A stretch of 64,000 nucleotides of DNA from Bdellovibrionales bacterium. Its GTDB lineage: Bacteria; Bdellovibrionota; Bdellovibrionia; Bdellovibrionales; DASUEL01. The notes beneath the pieces were generated by a model, which saw only the letters and a list, made by a program, of their open reading frames with translations, was not told where the DNA came from and did not search any database. Below are positions 20,587 through 48,777 of this stretch, in pieces; the first letter of the stretch is position 1; every line of letters begins with the position of its first letter. The translations under genes were made by a program, and so were the position numbers. Location of the stretch: the NCBI GenBank assembly GCA_050250255.1, contig JBFWOZ010000008.1, forward strand, positions 24,516 through 88,515. The letters are read 5' to 3'.

Positions 20587-21237
20587 TTTCTTTTGCTCCG
20601 CACGAGCTTTCAACCACGTAAAAACCATAGGTAGCATCGACACGATAATGATTCCGAAGATCACGATGTGGAAATTTCTTTTCACTTCAGGAATATTTCC
20701 AAACATGTATCCCGCGACAAGAAAAATCCCGACCCACAACACGGCACCAATAATGTTGTACACGAGGAATCTCGTGTAGTTCATGCGCGCCACTCCCGCC
20801 ACGAAAGGCGAAAAGGTACGAACGATTGGCATGAAGCGAGTGACGATAATCGTGAGGGCTCCGTGCTTGTCATAGAATTTTTGAGTTTTAAGAAGATGTT
20901 GCTTATTTAAAAGCCAAGTAGATTTTCTTTCAAACACTTTGGGACCAAGCCATTTTCCAATAGCATAATTCACCGTATTGCCAAGGACACCAGCAACTAC
21001 GAGGAGCACAAACATGAGGGGAAGGCTTAACTCACTTCCCTCGAGCGTGATCACAGCACCTACTGCGAATAGCAGCGAATCTCCAGGGAGAAAGGGTGTA
21101 ACGACCAGGCCCGTTTCTGCAAATATAATTAGGAATAAAATGAGGTAGGTCCACAGGCCAAAATAAAGCGTGAGTTTTACGAGGTGAACATCAAGATGCA
21201 ACATTACGTCGATAAAATAAAGTAGGTAATCCATCAT
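20572..21237 (-). CDS. dedA: DedA family membrane protein
   Basis: FAETGLVVTPFLPGDSLLF, RFMPIVRTF.PFVAG; likely start at ATG 21237 or 21234. Confidence 0.9.
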   Translation of the reverse strand: MMDYLLYFIDVMLHLDVHLVKLTLYFGLWTYLILFLIIFAETGLVVTPFLPGDSLLFAVGAVITLEGSELSLPLMFVLLVVAGVLGNTVNYAIGKWLGPKVFERKSTWLLNKQHLLKTQKFYDKHGALTIIVTRFMPIVRTFSPFVAGVARMNYTRFLVYNIIGAVLWVGIFLVAGYMFGNIPEVKRNFHIVIFGIIIVSMLPMVFTWLKARAEQKKLKTS

Positions 21238-21324
21238 GGACTTATCATCGTCGCGTACCTGAGAAGTTGCAAATAAAATATTTGGTAAGTTGACATGTCT
21301 GTAGAGAAATAACAGCCTCATAAT

Positions 21325-21645
21325 ATGAAGATATTAACTTGGCTGATGTTTACATGCTTGGTAGCACAATCCGAAGTTGATAAAGTATTTGTTGGTACAT
21401 TCTCTAAAATTGAGTGGGGCGATTACAACCATATTGTTCTTATAGATAAAGCTGGCAAAAACGTGAGTTTTTGGTGTGGCATGATGCAGGGGCAAGCACT
21501 CAATTGTAATGAAATCGAATCGCATTCAAATAAATATGCCGGAAAGAAAATGAAAATAACTTATAAAACCATTAAAAGTTATGTACCAGAAGCTAAAGAA
21601 AATATCACAAAACAAGAAACTACTAAAATAGAACTTCTTAAGTAA
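21325..21645 (+). CDS. small AT-rich hypothetical exported protein
   Basis: 106-aa ORF, hydrophobic N-terminus, lower GC than neighbours, converges on the HNH gene. Confidence 0.65.
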   Translation: MKILTWLMFTCLVAQSEVDKVFVGTFSKIEWGDYNHIVLIDKAGKNVSFWCGMMQGQALNCNEIESHSNKYAGKKMKITYKTIKSYVPEAKENITKQETTKIELLK

Positions 21646-21688
21646 TTCATTATGCTAAAGCAACCTTGAATGAACCTAAAACGCATAA

Positions 21689-22492
21689 TCAATGCGTATG
21701 CGTCAGCCGATGGTGCCCCGAACAAAGCGTCGTAAGATTCTCTAAAGCATCATTTCCACCTTTATTACGAGGAATAATGTGATGGGTGTCGAGCCACCTC
21801 CGCTCCTCGCACCTTTGTCCCATTGAGTCGCGGTGAGTGCACTGACCGCGATCTCTCAAAATCACCTGTCGCGCGACAGGGAAATTGGCCCGATGCTGTA
21901 ATTTCTCGGCTTTTCTCACTGGATCTTTTTGCTCTAAGTAGATATTGAGCAAAGCTTCAAGCGTATCTTCAAGACTCGCATGTTTTTGTTGGCGTTGAGA
22001 TTCCAACTCTTGGGCTCGTTTGAGTTTTTGATGAAGCTCTTTAGAAATGCCCATTTGCAGGTTGAGTCTTTCTTCACTTACAAACTTCACCCGCTCAGGA
22101 GTCGACTCTTGAGGGCAAATTGTAGCAACTTGCTGTTCAAGTTTTTTCTGCGGCAGCTCAATGGCCATCTTGAGCCACTCCTCCTGATTCGTAGGAGTCA
22201 AAACCGGCGTGATCTTTCTTGCCTTCGAAACGCTGAGCGTACCTGATTGAATCGCTCGCTTCAGCTCAGGCACTTCCTTGGCTTTTCTCGCTACGGTGAT
22301 AAAATTGTAAGCCGTACTTTCACTCAACTTCAACACATTCACCGTATAGTCATAGAGACTTTTGCATTCGAATTTTAAATACACCCGGCCATCATCGATT
22401 TGCTGGAGAACTTCAATCACATCTGATTCCGCCTTTTTGAATCGCCCCGCTACAGCCAAAGCTTTTTGATGAATTTCCATATACTTCGTCAT
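21689..22492 (-). CDS. HNH endonuclease with long helical N-terminal domain (copy 1)
   Basis: RD.GQC...C....DTHHIIP...GG.D..ENLTTLCSGHH; AAGGAG RBS; colinear paralog at 61636..62439. Confidence 0.9.
   Translation of the reverse strand: MTKYMEIHQKALAVAGRFKKAESDVIEVLQQIDDGRVYLKFECKSLYDYTVNVLKLSESTAYNFITVARKAKEVPELKRAIQSGTLSVSKARKITPVLTPTNQEEWLKMAIELPQKKLEQQVATICPQESTPERVKFVSEERLNLQMGISKELHQKLKRAQELESQRQQKHASLEDTLEALLNIYLEQKDPVRKAEKLQHRANFPVARQVILRDRGQCTHRDSMGQRCEERRWLDTHHIIPRNKGGNDALENLTTLCSGHHRLTHTH
21865..21880. repeat. 16-bp perfect palindrome inside the HNH gene
   Basis: CCTGTCGCGCGACAGG; identical copy at 22750-22765. Confidence 0.95.
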
Positions 22493-22740
22493 GCTTATCT
22501 CCTTTTCGCTAAAAGTTGCATGACCATAACATAGATTTTTCTGAGCACATTTATGAAGAGCGAAGAATGGTTTTTAAAATGCATTTAAACTTTCATAAAT
22601 GCTCTCGGTCAAATTGATTTTATAAATTCAAAAATCGAAAATATTTTTTCATGTACGTGACAAGTATTCAACTTTAAGATTTAAGAAAATGTGTCAATGT
22701 TTTCTTCATATTTATTTGATTAGATATATTTGAACTACAC
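22493..22740 (-). promoter_or_regulatory. AT-rich upstream region conserved with HNH copy 2
   Basis: Shared blocks GACCATAACA (minus strand TGTTATGGTC, extended -10-like), TTTTTAAAANNNATTTAAAC, TTCATATTTATTT, CTACAC. Confidence 0.65.
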
Positions 22741-22749
22741 GGCCGCAAG

Positions 22750-22765
22750 CCTGTCGCGCGACAGG
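22750..22765. repeat. 16-bp perfect palindrome, extragenic copy
   Basis: CCTGTCGCGCGACAGG, identical to 21865-21880. Confidence 0.95.
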
Positions 22766-22786
22766 TAATTTCAACAAGTCTCTGTC

Positions 22787-22806
22787 TTTCATGACGAATG
22801 ATCGCT
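22787..22806 (+). repeat. 20-nt motif, copy 1
   Basis: TTTCATGACGAATGATCGCT; 16/20 identical to 23388-23407. Confidence 0.65.
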
Positions 22807-22871
22807 GCTAAAATTACGTTTATTGACAGCTTTGATTCGACAACCATAGACTATGGCTAAAGGATAATTTT

Positions 22872-23327
22872 ATGAGAAACCTCTTCCTCTGTTGTTTTTT
22901 TCTAGCGGGCTGCACAACTTCTTTCAAACGAGAAGGCTACAGCATTAGCTCGTACCAAGCTGATCCTCAGCAGTGCAAAGTGGCTATACGGTATCAAGCC
23001 AAACCTGAAGAAAAAGCTGGAAAGCTTTTAGGAACAATTTCGGCAAGTGAACCCGGATTAGGAACCACTTGTGATCATGAATATGTCGTCCTTCAGTTCC
23101 TGAAAGATGCCTGCGAGATAAAAGCGGACTTAATCAATATCATCGAAGAAAAGTTTCCAGACCATATTAGCACTTGTTATCGTGCAAAGGCCGAATTGAT
23201 TGCTGTGAACTCTAAACGCTTACTAAGAACTGATGCCAGATATTATCCAGACAAAATACGTAAAAATACCAAGAAGCTTGGCCAAATATTTACTGAGCAG
23301 TTTAAAGCTCAATGGAACAATGAGTAG
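22872..23327 (+). CDS. hypothetical lipoprotein
   Basis: AAGGA RBS; lipobox LAGC; Cys-containing domain (C...ADLINI.EE...STCYRAKA). Confidence 0.75.
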   Translation: MRNLFLCCFFLAGCTTSFKREGYSISSYQADPQQCKVAIRYQAKPEEKAGKLLGTISASEPGLGTTCDHEYVVLQFLKDACEIKADLINIIEEKFPDHISTCYRAKAELIAVNSKRLLRTDARYYPDKIRKNTKKLGQIFTEQFKAQWNNE

Positions 23328-23387
23328 TTGTTGCTGAAATATTCCTAGCCGAAAGCGCTGATCACAGCAACAGCATTTCAGGGAGCA

Positions 23388-23407
23388 TTTCGTGACAAAT
23401 AATGGCT
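23388..23407 (+). repeat. 20-nt motif, copy 2
   Basis: TTTCGTGACAAATAATGGCT; AGCATTTCRTGACAAATA (17/18) is shared with 24020-24037. Confidence 0.75.
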
Positions 23408-23550
23408 AAACGTTATACTTTTTTTGTTACTTCTGATGAGCTCTGCCGGGTGAAATATCCCTCAAATTCAAATAAACTAACAAGCAGTTGTCTTTTCTCA
23501 GGTCTGTCTCTTGCACTTACGTCTACTACTTATCAAAACAGGAGAATCAA

Positions 23551-23820
23551 ATGAAACTTTCGCTTATTGGAATGCTGGTTTTGTCTTTTAGCACCATGGC
23601 TTCTGCTGATAGTTTTTCTGACAATTGCGACAGCATGCGAGAGCATGCAGTTATTCTATCCACCAATCTTCAAGCGATTAGCAAAAATGAATTAAATATT
23701 GCGCTTGAAGCTGCAAAAGAAGGTAAGCAAATTGATTTGAAGTCTTCTAATGAAGGCATTATAAATATTGCAGATACTATCGATAGACTAAACTACAAAA
23801 TCAATCAGCAGTGCAAATAG
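23551..23820 (+). CDS. small secreted hypothetical protein
   Basis: AGGAGA RBS; signal peptide MKLSLIGMLVLSFSTMASA; two Cys. Confidence 0.75.
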   Translation: MKLSLIGMLVLSFSTMASADSFSDNCDSMREHAVILSTNLQAISKNELNIALEAAKEGKQIDLKSSNEGIINIADTIDRLNYKINQQCK

Positions 23821-23877
23821 CTACCAACTACATACCTGAGCAAGCAACGACCGCAATACCACGAAATTCCATAGGAA

Positions 23878-23893
23878 CCTGTCGCACAACAGG
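23878..23893. repeat. degenerate copy of the 16-bp palindrome
   Basis: CCTGTCGCACAACAGG (14/16), followed by TAA as at 22766. Confidence 0.8.
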
Positions 23894-24023
23894 TAAATAG
23901 AAGCCAACAAATATTTTTAGTGAATCAATGATTAGATAACGACCCAAGTATGTTTATCGTGGATAGCTAGCTTGCTTCTGAAACTTTCATACCTGCTCGC
24001 CTACTAACTGCAATCCCACAGCA

Positions 24024-24042
24024 TTTCATGACAAATATTGCT
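24024..24042 (+). repeat. motif copy 3
   Basis: TTTCATGACAAATATTGCT. Confidence 0.75.
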
Positions 24043-24145
24043 CTCGGGTTGGCAAACTAATAATTTATTGGAGTCTGAAATTTGCAATAGATGATTCAGA
24101 GTCCATTAGACATTGGTTCAAATCGTATTTAAGAGGAGGCTATTT

Positions 24146-24460
24146 ATGAAGAGCACAATTATTGTCACTTTCATCGCATTTTTAGGATTGATTTCAAATG
24201 CCCACGCCCAAAGCGGGACCGCCAAAGTGTGCGGTAAGGTAAGCCGAATTACCACTGAAGACATCGGTTCTTCTGACATTGAAATTAAGAATGCGAATGG
24301 GACTATAGAAGTCGTACGACTATCTACAAATGCCCATAAGCTTTATCCTAGTTTTTTTCTTGCACAAACTGCTTTTATTTCTAAAGCAAATGTATGTGCC
24401 GATGTGGAGTGGGGAACAAGCCTGATTAAGAATGTCTATTCTATGACAATTTCGAATTAA
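24146..24460 (+). CDS. small secreted hypothetical protein
   Basis: GAGGAGG RBS; signal peptide ending AHA; two Cys. Confidence 0.75.
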   Translation: MKSTIIVTFIAFLGLISNAHAQSGTAKVCGKVSRITTEDIGSSDIEIKNANGTIEVVRLSTNAHKLYPSFFLAQTAFISKANVCADVEWGTSLIKNVYSMTISN

Positions 24461-24461
24461 G

Positions 24462-24843
24462 TTAGCTCGCCTTGGAAACAAACGGGCTGCTGAGTGTTAC
24501 ACACATGAACACATACACAGGCAAGCCCTTGTGCCCCTCGATCTTCCATTCTTTCGAAGTCATCTTCAGAGAAGAAATTGCGCTTGAAGCAGTCAAGTGT
24601 TGGTAAACATTCTCAGAGACCGCAACCTCATGAGCATCGGCAAAAGCTTGTAATTTAGAAGCTAAGTTCACGGAGTTTCCAAAGTAATCCATACCGTGAT
24701 TGAGATTCACCGCAATCACCGATCCGACGTGCATTGAAATTCTTAATCGTAAGGGCGTATCCAGATTATTCTGAGCAAAGCTTTTTTTTGGATTTCAACA
24801 GCAGCTTCGAAAGCATCATCGATGGATCCAAAAGCGCCCGTCA
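24462..24843 (-). pseudogene. class III adenylate/guanylate cyclase C-terminal remnant
   Basis: LRLRISMHVGSVIAVNLNHGMDYFGNSVNLASKLQ; upstream AF..DDAFEAAVEIQ is out of frame across an A8 tract (24782-24789); N-terminal part absent. Confidence 0.75.
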
Positions 24844-24899
24844 CTTAAGAATTCTTCGGATTTTTTAAGGGCCTCACCAAGTCTAGATCGACCTTCGCC

Positions 24900-25781
24900 C
24901 TAGGTCTTTACAACAGAAGTTTCGGTGCGCACTACGCCATAAGCCGAAGCGATAATGAGAAGCGCCCCGCCCCACTGAGTAAGGCTTAAGCGGTCACCTA
25001 GAATCGCAAACGCAAAGAGAGCTGCGAAAGGAGATTCGAGAAGAAACAGGAGGCTCGCAAGTGACGAAGATAAAACTTTTTGCGCACGAATCTGAAGCAT
25101 AAACGCAAGAATTGTACTTCCAAAAATCAGCCACGCGAGTCCAAAAAGACCGACATTGGACCACGGCCATCGCCACTCTTCTGGAAAAACAAAAAGCAAA
25201 ACAGCCGGAAGCCACATCGCCCAAAAACTTTGATAAGTATTAAAGGCCACCGAAGAATCAATACGGTTGGAAACTTGTCCCACGAAGAGGATATGCATAG
25301 TCGCACCCAGAGAACATCCGAGCGTGAGCAAATCTCCTAAGTTCCAATCCCCAGCGTGGAAATTACAAATGAGCGCCGTACCTACAAGCGCAATCAGCAC
25401 GTACACGTAATGACTAAAAATAATTTTTCGACGGTAGAAAAAACGCTCCATCAACGGAACAAACACGATATAAAGAGTCGTAATGAAACTGCTCTTCGTA
25501 GCGGTTGTGTATTGCAATCCCCAGGTTTGTAAAACCATGAGAAGACCGAGCATCATGCCCGGCCAAAAAGACAAAGTTAAAATTTTACGATGATTGGTAT
25601 TTTTAAGTGACGGAATGAGAAAGAAAAATGGCAGAGTCGCAACAATCGCAACTACAAACCGAACCACCGCCATGGTCAGCGGACCCATGTCCCTTAGAGC
25701 AAAAACGGTGGCAATAAAACCAAAACCCCAGATGGCGCCAGCGAAAATCAATTCGCCGACGGCACGACGCTCACTGATCAT
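24900..25781 (-). CDS. EamA/DMT family transporter
   Basis: IWGFGF, QTWGLQYTTATKSSFIT, GDLLTL, LESPFAALFA; about 10 TM segments. Confidence 0.9.
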   Translation of the reverse strand: MISERRAVGELIFAGAIWGFGFIATVFALRDMGPLTMAVVRFVVAIVATLPFFFLIPSLKNTNHRKILTLSFWPGMMLGLLMVLQTWGLQYTTATKSSFITTLYIVFVPLMERFFYRRKIIFSHYVYVLIALVGTALICNFHAGDWNLGDLLTLGCSLGATMHILFVGQVSNRIDSSVAFNTYQSFWAMWLPAVLLFVFPEEWRWPWSNVGLFGLAWLIFGSTILAFMLQIRAQKVLSSSLASLLFLLESPFAALFAFAILGDRLSLTQWGGALLIIASAYGVVRTETSVVKT

Positions 25782-48650: not shown

Positions 48651-48777
48651 GGGTCTGCTGAGGAAGCATTAGCTGCGTCGTTACAATCACCAAAATCTCG
48701 CTCCAACGTACAGTGAAGTACGTCTCCGCGCGATTTTAGCTTACATGCCTCGCATCTAATACTTCCTCAACAGACCC
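48651..48777. repeat. 127-nt long-hairpin element (MITE/ERIC-like)
   Basis: Terminal 27-nt inverted repeats match 24/27; internal pairs AAAATC/GATTTT and ACGTAC/GTACGT. Confidence 0.75.

Follow-up and report, generated by a model that had tools for sequence, protein, structure and literature searches.

A row of small foreign genes beside a likely mobile HNH gene module in a Bdellovibrionales genome

Introduction

The hallmarks of integrons and CALINs are IntI and the attC cores and hairpins that close their genes. The locus described here resembles these systems, being a co-oriented row of small, unrelated and often AT-rich genes with a predicted outward promoter and a divergent enzyme gene, but no IntI was found in the genome and no attC cores or hairpins along the row, and the repeat described here in the window (i.e., the whole stretch of 64,000 nt analysed in this study) precedes the genes rather than closing them. 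In REP/REPIN-RAYT systems, a short palindrome, recognizable by a GTAG/CGTC tag, is multiplied around the gene of a cognate Y1 (HUH) transposase. Here too a palindrome is clustered around its cognate gene (47 copies in another genome, G029), but the cognate is an HNH nuclease, the palindrome also lies in the coding sequence and the GTAG/CGTC tag is missing; Y1_Tnp profiles match eight times in our genome and never in the window.

Three other described systems come close. Single-element transposable modules (TMo), IS and ISCR elements share with the present case a single mobile gene copy that carries adjacent DNA, an outward −35 box at the end of the element with the ability to drive the following gene, and insertion into conserved operons (PMC3281130). 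Of the systems considered, these come nearest to the module in their working. The copies of the HNH module are likewise dispersed between otherwise adjacent genes (nine full-length copies; 4/4 loci). Unlike those elements, however, it has no DDE, HUH or tyrosine transposase, its enzyme being an HNH nuclease with predicted ParB-like and ribbon-helix-helix (RHH) domains, while neither terminal repeats nor target duplications were found in a rough search, and its copies are old instead of near-identical. The PeSL cassettes of T4-type phages are similar in that a repeated intergenic regulatory sequence stands before each ORFan, with integrase-free shuffling proposed (PMC2839356). PeSLs are about 100 bp long, number ~50 per genome, combine a consensus promoter with a stem-loop and come with no cognate nuclease (PMC2839356), whereas the extra copies in the window are 22 nt long, without conserved fold, and tied to an HNH gene. 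Finally, the DUF222-HNH elements REP13E12 of mycobacteria are also dispersed multicopy genes with a helical N-terminal part, a C-terminal HNH domain and a mobility mechanism that is unknown, as far as the available part of the source goes (PMC10589994). DUF222 matches are nonetheless marginal in our family and concern only 3/91 relatives of the window protein, not the window protein itself, and neither a passenger slot nor an outward promoter is described for REP13E12 in that part (PMC10589994). A full-text literature search, with most subscription papers outside its scope, returned no description of a module made of an HNH gene, a leader and a passenger.

Organization of the Locus

The row lies in a 3.09-Mb source genome that is 99% complete (hereafter G000), and its features are collected in Table 1. 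The original prediction had described small exported-protein genes, each with its own ribosome-binding site and preceded by a copy of a 20-mer; its coordinates, start codons, ribosome-binding sites and motif-to-ATG distances (85, 163 and 122 nt) were all confirmed. The AT-richness attributed to these genes holds for A, C and D (0th, 4th and 18th GC percentile of length-matched ORFs) but only mildly for B (41% GC, 31st percentile). Similarly, the palindrome reported before the first and third genes of the array is exact at 22750, but degenerate at 23878.

Table 1. Features of the row and of the adjoining HNH module (positions within the window).
Feature	Position	Strand	Description
TTGACA box	21290..21295	+	29 nt 5′ of the gene A ATG, leaderless-type geometry; putative promoter
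Gene A	21325..21645	+	106 aa, 33% GC; convergent with the HNH gene; no preceding 20-mer copy
HNH-family gene	21689..22492	−	267 aa
Palindrome, 16 bp, within the HNH coding sequence	21865..21880	.	Encodes PVARQ at the linker
HNH module 5′ leader	22493..22697	−	Conserved, AT-rich; terminates at the GTCAA anchor (22693)
Palindrome, perfect copy in the leader	22750..22765	.	Position approximately as in G029 modules
Module outward segment	22771..22852	+	AAGTC, 20-mer copy 1 (22784-22803), −35 TTGACA (22823), −10 TAGACT (22847)
Gene B	22872..23327	+	Predicted 151-aa lipoprotein; first passenger of the module
20-mer copy 2	23385..23406	+	Outward-segment core of 22 nt, isolated; a promoter-like site (GTGACA-16-TATACT) overlaps it
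Gene C	23551..23820	+	89 aa, predicted exported
Palindrome, degenerate copy	23878..23893	.	Two mismatches; left flank matches that of the in-gene copy at 11/20 nt
20-mer copy 3	24021..24042	+	Isolated 22-nt core
Gene D	24146..24460	+	104 aa, predicted exported
Adenylate/guanylate cyclase remnant	24462..~24850	−	5′-truncated, frameshifted; Pfam PF00211 (E 8.5e-10) and three-frame reading; left gene end approximate

Export signals were judged by eye, from a lipobox (LAGC) in B and signal-like N-termini in C and D. Homologs are scarce for all four genes. Those of gene A (30–36% identity) were found in 3/300 genomes of the order, in differing contexts, and those of gene B in 6/300, the five that were inspected all being without HNH gene or leader within 1.5 kb. 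For genes C and D, no homolog was found in the 300 other genomes of the order or, at similar length, in a set of 5.8 billion proteins, and gene C has one weak PHROG match (E 7e-4). The row is bordered on its right by the cyclase remnant, a feature missing from the original prediction, which comes directly after eamA and for which no similar copy was found elsewhere in the genome.

Two further details of the intergenic DNA can be recorded. The interval from the gene B stop to copy 2 (23325-23385) holds GCATTTC in two copies and a nest of short inverted repeats, which may be a terminator or the scar of a duplication, and an imperfect 32-nt inverted repeat (75%) lies in the HNH leader (22526-22623). 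As for the left flank of the palindrome at 23878, its likeness to that of the in-gene copy has a P of about 0.005, for a comparison that was picked post hoc.

The HNH Gene Family and Its Protein

Nine full-length copies of the HNH gene are present in G000 (69–75% identical to the window copy, itself counted), along with several fragments and a second family near 28% identity. Fourfold-degenerate sites are 25–60% identical among the paralogs, i.e., synonymous sites are near saturation, which indicates that the copies are old and that the conserved content of their leaders is probably under selection. In the tree, the window copy is not firmly placed with either the other G000 copies or those of G029, which are 62–67% identical. 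The family, annotated as hypothetical, counts 2,701 cluster representatives at E-values up to 1e-30 and is present in 36/151 genomes of the order; locus scans with the single HNH protein returned one metagenome and seven genome loci, all distant.

A structural model of the protein (pLDDT 96.7) predicts a ParB/KorB-like helical DNA-binding domain followed by a ribbon-helix-helix and an HNH nuclease. Briefly, for residues 17-128 of the model the best alignments are those to ParB, KorB and Spo0J DNA-binding domains (Z 7.1, 6.8 and 6.4; rmsd 3.0–3.4 over 92–98 residues), while residues 140-190 align with RHH proteins (Z up to 5.0) and residues 204-267 with HNH domains, including conserved His/Asn/Cys residues; all these fold Z-scores are modest (<8) and of a range that the tool rates as common. 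Foldseek returned no match at E up to 0.001. Searches of Pfam, NCBIfam and PHROG yielded HNH-type matches only, without any DDE, HUH or other transposase or recombinase domain. DUF222 does not match the protein itself, being detected in 3/91 aligned relatives (best E 5.8e-5) and in 21% of one Atlas cluster. The protein is also predicted to form a homodimer (score 0.74 vs. 0.00 for the best control; contacts agreeing at 94% between runs; pLDDT of 85 or more), by a mark that is passed by 20/30 solved pairs and 1/23 single chains. The predicted interface involves strand 143-148 and the helices after it, and the pass may echo a likeness to solved RHH dimers.

Other members of these families have neighbourhoods of their own. 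Between murB and ftsQ in G000 (locus L145, 4880-7100, on contig C1) stand a hicA/hicB-like pair, an HNH remnant and a gene for a 229-aa exported protein, and a family match just past murB in G006 and G008 hints at a recurrent insertion site. Second-family HNH genes (G000:C10:40311-44357; C18) have AT-rich exported-protein genes on both flanks.

A Palindrome inside and beside the HNH Gene

The palindrome CCTGTC-N4-GACAGG has nine exact occurrences in G000, of which five are within HNH genes; three copies, one of them degenerate, lie at the present locus. When the spacer of its 14-nt core (CTGTC-Nk-GACAG) is varied from 0 to 12, ten matches are obtained at k = 4 and 0–3 at each other value. A variant of the palindrome occupies the linker in 9/9 HNH copies of G000, six or more of them with a self-complementary centre (CGCG, TTAA, CCGG) in spite of residue changes. 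G029 holds 47 copies with exact arms, mostly upstream and downstream of its HNH genes and with no small genes between them, against none for a reversed-pattern control. In distant genomes, the occurrence is patchy, with a strict linker palindrome at 8/38 loci, four of which have a flanking copy (two of these looking duplicated), with none in a far control. To judge from G000 and G029, the palindrome is the HNH family's own repeat, carried both inside and beside the gene. ParB-type domains bind palindromes of about 16 bp, and given the ParB-like domain predicted in the HNH protein, the 16-bp palindrome is a natural candidate for its binding site.

Larger repeats were also seen around HNH genes. 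In G029 (L043-L057), these genes are surrounded by palindrome mosaics with repeated spacers of ~330–350 nt, REPIN-like and often at contig breaks. In G148 (L097), a perfect palindrome of 56 nt, located 1.6 kb upstream of the HNH gene, has the sequence of that lineage's in-gene palindrome at its heart. In G000, a palindromic repeat of 85–100 nt (C1:10043-10142; C29, C30, C39, C10, C11) is found past the 3′ end of several HNH copies, as well as at both ends of the module lying between flaG and fliD.

Leader, Core and Outward Promoter

The three spacers of the row share a 13-mer with 11 identical columns, a score reached by 1/600 triplets of real intergenic sequences (an A/T run) and by 0/600 Markov shuffles; the exact 13-mer occurs six times in the 3.09-Mb genome, three of them at the window locus. 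A profile of the HNH leader finds 15 places in the genome, i.e., 14 belonging to this HNH family (some of them at contig ends that lack the assembled HNH gene) and one, only partly matched, at a gene of the second family (C31). Going outward, these leaders present a GTCAAA anchor, AAGTC, a 22-nt core (consensus near GCATTTCRTGACAAAYAATG), AATCATT and a TTGACA-like box. By its sequence, the 20-mer belongs to the HNH module, being the core conserved in its leader at the outer end. Matches to TTTCATGACA in G029 were rejected because they correspond to the start codon region of the HNH gene.

The relation of the isolated copies to the leaders was evaluated with a matrix built from 12 other leaders, without any window sequence. 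Its columns were picked with the motif position known, the letters coming from other loci. Across 6.18 million positions, copy 2 ranks first and copy 3 fourth, and with one training row re-anchored and five choices of columns, their ranks vary from 1 to 6 and from 3 to 20, respectively. Both fit the family matrix better than most leader-linked copies do. Copy 1, being 2 nt short, ranks between 2,099 and 42,234 with the ungapped matrix, but a gapped profile built without the window locus matches it over 117 nt (E 2.3e-6); within a 4-kb region, the gapped profile also picks up copy 2 (33 nt; E 0.011) and copy 3 (26 nt; E 0.067). Apart from copies 2 and 3, the top matrix matches are either HNH-linked or in coding sequence. 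On one point, this genome-wide scan supports the original prediction, which would have failed had the motif been a generic promoter before many housekeeping genes: the 20-mer is not of that kind, being linked to HNH genes.

Similarity among leader-linked copies extends ~30 nt beyond the core, up to the −35 box, while the flanking DNA of copies 2 and 3 resembles a leader no more than random intergenic sequences do (P 0.16–0.64); the idea that C and D are preceded by decayed full leaders was rejected, these flanks not being above the null. Compared with each other, copies 2 and 3 are identical at 18/22 positions and weakly alike over the 60 nt upstream (P about 0.01).

The TTGACA-like box lies at +75 to +84 in 7/12 leaders, beyond which identity drops to 0.19–0.25 (four sequences), and is predicted to serve as a promoter. 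In a promoter scan, the outward −35/−10 pair before gene B scores 10/12, promoter-like sites appear at copies 1 and 2 only, and none is found at the expected distance behind copies 2 and 3. No conserved fold was detected in the outward segment, since 14/15 leaders have a z above −2, the exception being the partial second-family match on C31.

The core contains a CATT-N11-AATG dyad, which resembles the LysR box consensus (T-N11-A), and in leaderless-type cases it is centred 62–65 nt 5′ of the passenger ATG; activators and LysR-type regulators bind at about such a distance upstream. The genome encodes eight LysR-type regulators, the nearest ~26 kb away, and the gene divergent from the core is the HNH gene, not a LysR gene. 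Throughout G000, 74 TTGACA-like boxes lie 28–31 nt before start codons, vs. 1–11 per position elsewhere, a bias which suggests that many mRNAs of this organism are leaderless; a literature search returned nothing on leaderless mRNAs for Bdellovibrio. That the leaderless geometry is specific to the module was rejected in light of its genome-wide occurrence.

A Passenger Slot Inserted between Resident Genes

The start codon of the gene beyond the leader, hereafter the passenger, is at a nearly fixed position, at +108 to +112 from the anchor in 7/14 leaders and at +119 in two more, with a −35-like box 28–29 nt before the ATG. Other passengers start at +135, +179 (the window, where the palindrome lies in between), +197 and +226, and one leader is without convincing gene. 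Ten passengers were scanned and are unrelated: a peroxiredoxin, a deoxyribosyltransferase-like protein, GspG and an epimerase are among them, while six have no Pfam family. The GspG/pseudopilin-like passenger on C22 (PF08334; ending near 48690) has an apparently altered N-terminus.

Comparisons with related genomes indicate that this divergent gene travels with the HNH gene. In 19/23 relatives with enough flanking sequence, flaG is directly upstream of fliD, whereas in G000 the two are separated by an HNH gene and a peroxiredoxin gene, neither of which is carried by any of the 23. The genes flanking three other modules behave similarly: g202 and plsC are adjacent in 2/3 relatives and separated by ~0.6 kb in the third; for gyf and exbD, adjacency is seen in 9/19; the response regulator gene and g103 (C39) are adjacent in 2/19, these two being the only informative ones. 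In G001, the sole genome of the same family, the gene directly after gyf is the one found past the module in G000, in a partial match at a contig end. On these comparisons, the HNH gene and its passenger are inserted as a unit between genes that are neighbours in relatives at 4/4 other loci tested, so that the divergent gene is not a resident neighbour. For the interval between dedA and eamA, where the window row is located, G001 keeps typA next to eamA but its contig ends there and dedA is in another context, and the region is rearranged in G029, G006 and G022.

One place of the genome (C10:40112) has an outward segment of 70 nt that is accompanied by neither leader nor HNH gene (E 1e-4 genome-wide), 5 nt after a core gene and ahead of an AT-rich block of three genes, which implies that the segment can outlast its HNH gene. 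No divergent-passenger pattern stands out in G029 or, on examination by eye, at 40 HNH loci from six other genomes, and the slot may therefore be limited to this lineage. The rough search for terminal repeats and target duplications covered five modules and found none; the longest shared words were 6–11 nt with gaps up to 446 nt, for module ends that are undefined and without a null for comparison.

Origin of the Row

The account that we favour, and to which we give a slightly better than even chance, is that the row is a stack of passengers left by a mobile HNH module with a leader that terminates in a 22-nt, operator-like core and an outward promoter, the latter predicted. The unit, which recurs across the genome, comprises the HNH gene, a ~290-nt leader, the core/outward segment with its −35 box and one unrelated divergent passenger. 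Gene B is the passenger of the window module, in the normal slot, and the sites before C and D are copies of the module core. A dimeric HNH protein would bind the 16-bp palindrome through its ParB-like domain, and cutting by the HNH domain, followed by repair, would promote both the copying of the module and the uptake of foreign DNA at the leader end. C and D would then have come as earlier passengers, with an HNH gene and a leader that were since lost or displaced from this hot spot, and the core would have been retained before them as their control site, i.e., a putative regulator site ~62–65 nt upstream of the passenger start, and the third palindrome (23878) would be a leftover of a lost module. 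The spacer before D has a worn palindrome then a core, in the same order as before B. Since no detectable leader sequence surrounds copies 2 and 3, the lost modules are not directly visible, and the sole HNH-gene-like trace in the spacers has an E-value of 0.41.

How much of the cassette-array reading survives can now be stated. Foreign genes tied to the HNH element, with both repeats derived from it, are supported by the leader matrix and the insertion loci. The reported lack of an integrase stands, the best of 11 matches to TIGR02249 scoring 65 bits for a cut-off of 265 that none reaches, as does that of attC structures, in that no core pair occurs within 21201-24950, the three copies fold at z −0.3 to +1.1 and Rfam gives no hit. 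Of the two roles envisaged for the repeats, a shared promoter/operator fits best, while junction scars fit poorly, because copies 2 and 3 stay near the family matrix (above most leader-linked copies) when synonymous sites of the paralogs are near saturation. An array with a recombination site per gene is not borne out, considering the absence of a 3′ motif and of attC/IntI, extra cores at 1/15 loci and no joint that skips a unit. Specifically, no end motif is shared among the 3′ ends of the passengers, and both the multi-gene row and extra high-scoring intergenic core copies are found at the window locus only, among the 15 loci scanned (three with <5 kb of flank). Contigs from three sequencing runs of a single study, one of which (X1) may be the source and two of which (X2, X3) have short identical pieces only, contain no unit-skipping joint, but contigs drop rare variants, so that this lack says nothing about circles. 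A 3′ sequence common to the C6 and C37 passengers is an unrelated REP-like repeat, and the joints seen in sequencing contigs, all within typA or the HNH gene, seem to stem from other organisms or from paralogs.

Integrase-free serial capture, in which the 22-nt core would be a recombination site where circles made of a core and a gene integrate, regenerating the core and pushing older genes outward, is an unlikely explanation. It would account for copies 2 and 3 being near-consensus, isolated, in direct orientation, one per gene and without leader flanks, for passengers that vary by locus yet start at a near-fixed offset, and for an outward segment that begins at a near-identical profile position on C10 and in the window (243 and 246). 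PeSL repeats are proposed to shuffle ORFans in this manner in T4-type phages (PMC2839356). However, with extra intergenic cores at only 1/15 loci, donors flanked by two cores are lacking, the passengers have no common 3′ motif, similarity among leader-linked copies continues for ~30 nt beyond the core, as far as the −35 box, the HNH protein yielded no match to a recombinase domain, and the five inspected homologs of gene B are without leader. We are equally reserved about its strongest version, a transposase- and integrase-free capture element, whose dimeric protein would bind the palindrome, cut the leader end, serially insert genes and regenerate the 22-nt site, thereby building integron-like arrays in predatory bacteria; that such an element exists is doubtful.

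It is also improbable that C and D arrived separately and received their site either from the neighbouring leader, through a short local duplication or conversion, or through selection for the operator of a host regulator. Such a history agrees with the core alone being shared, with copies 2 and 3 being 18/22 alike and their upstream 60 nt weakly so (P about 0.01), with a core centre 62–65 nt before the passenger ATG in leaderless-type cases, and with a genome having eight LysR-type genes and a LysR-like CATT-N11-AATG dyad in the core. A host regulon would nonetheless be expected to have orphan sites elsewhere, whereas the best other matrix matches are HNH-linked or coding, the nearest LysR gene is ~26 kb distant, and the third palindrome is left unexplained whichever the source of the sites. 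Lastly, chance similarity of AT-rich spacers in an ordinary plasticity region is largely refuted and very improbable, for even though AT-rich intergenic DNA readily shares short words and 1/600 real triplets equalled the score, an independently trained matrix puts the two copies at ranks 1 and 3–4 of 6.18 million, both within 1.6 kb of the HNH start.

Conclusions

The feature found in the window is real and its link to the HNH gene was rightly recognized, the cassette-array mechanism coming second to the stack of passengers left by a mobile HNH module. By its organization, it may represent a novel form of single-element, gene-carrying mobile module. In G000, each HNH copy behaves as a carrier: the foreign gene differs from one copy to the next, its expression slot is fixed, and several copies are located within conserved clusters of genes, e.g., the flagellar one. 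The locus provides testable substrates in its 16-bp palindrome, its 22-nt core and the defined position of its passenger. If it is true that the HNH protein mobilises the module, genes would be acquired by a route that is independent of transposases and integrases alike, and the HNH gene family likely marks a little-studied mobile module that brings in genes and switches them on without an integrase.
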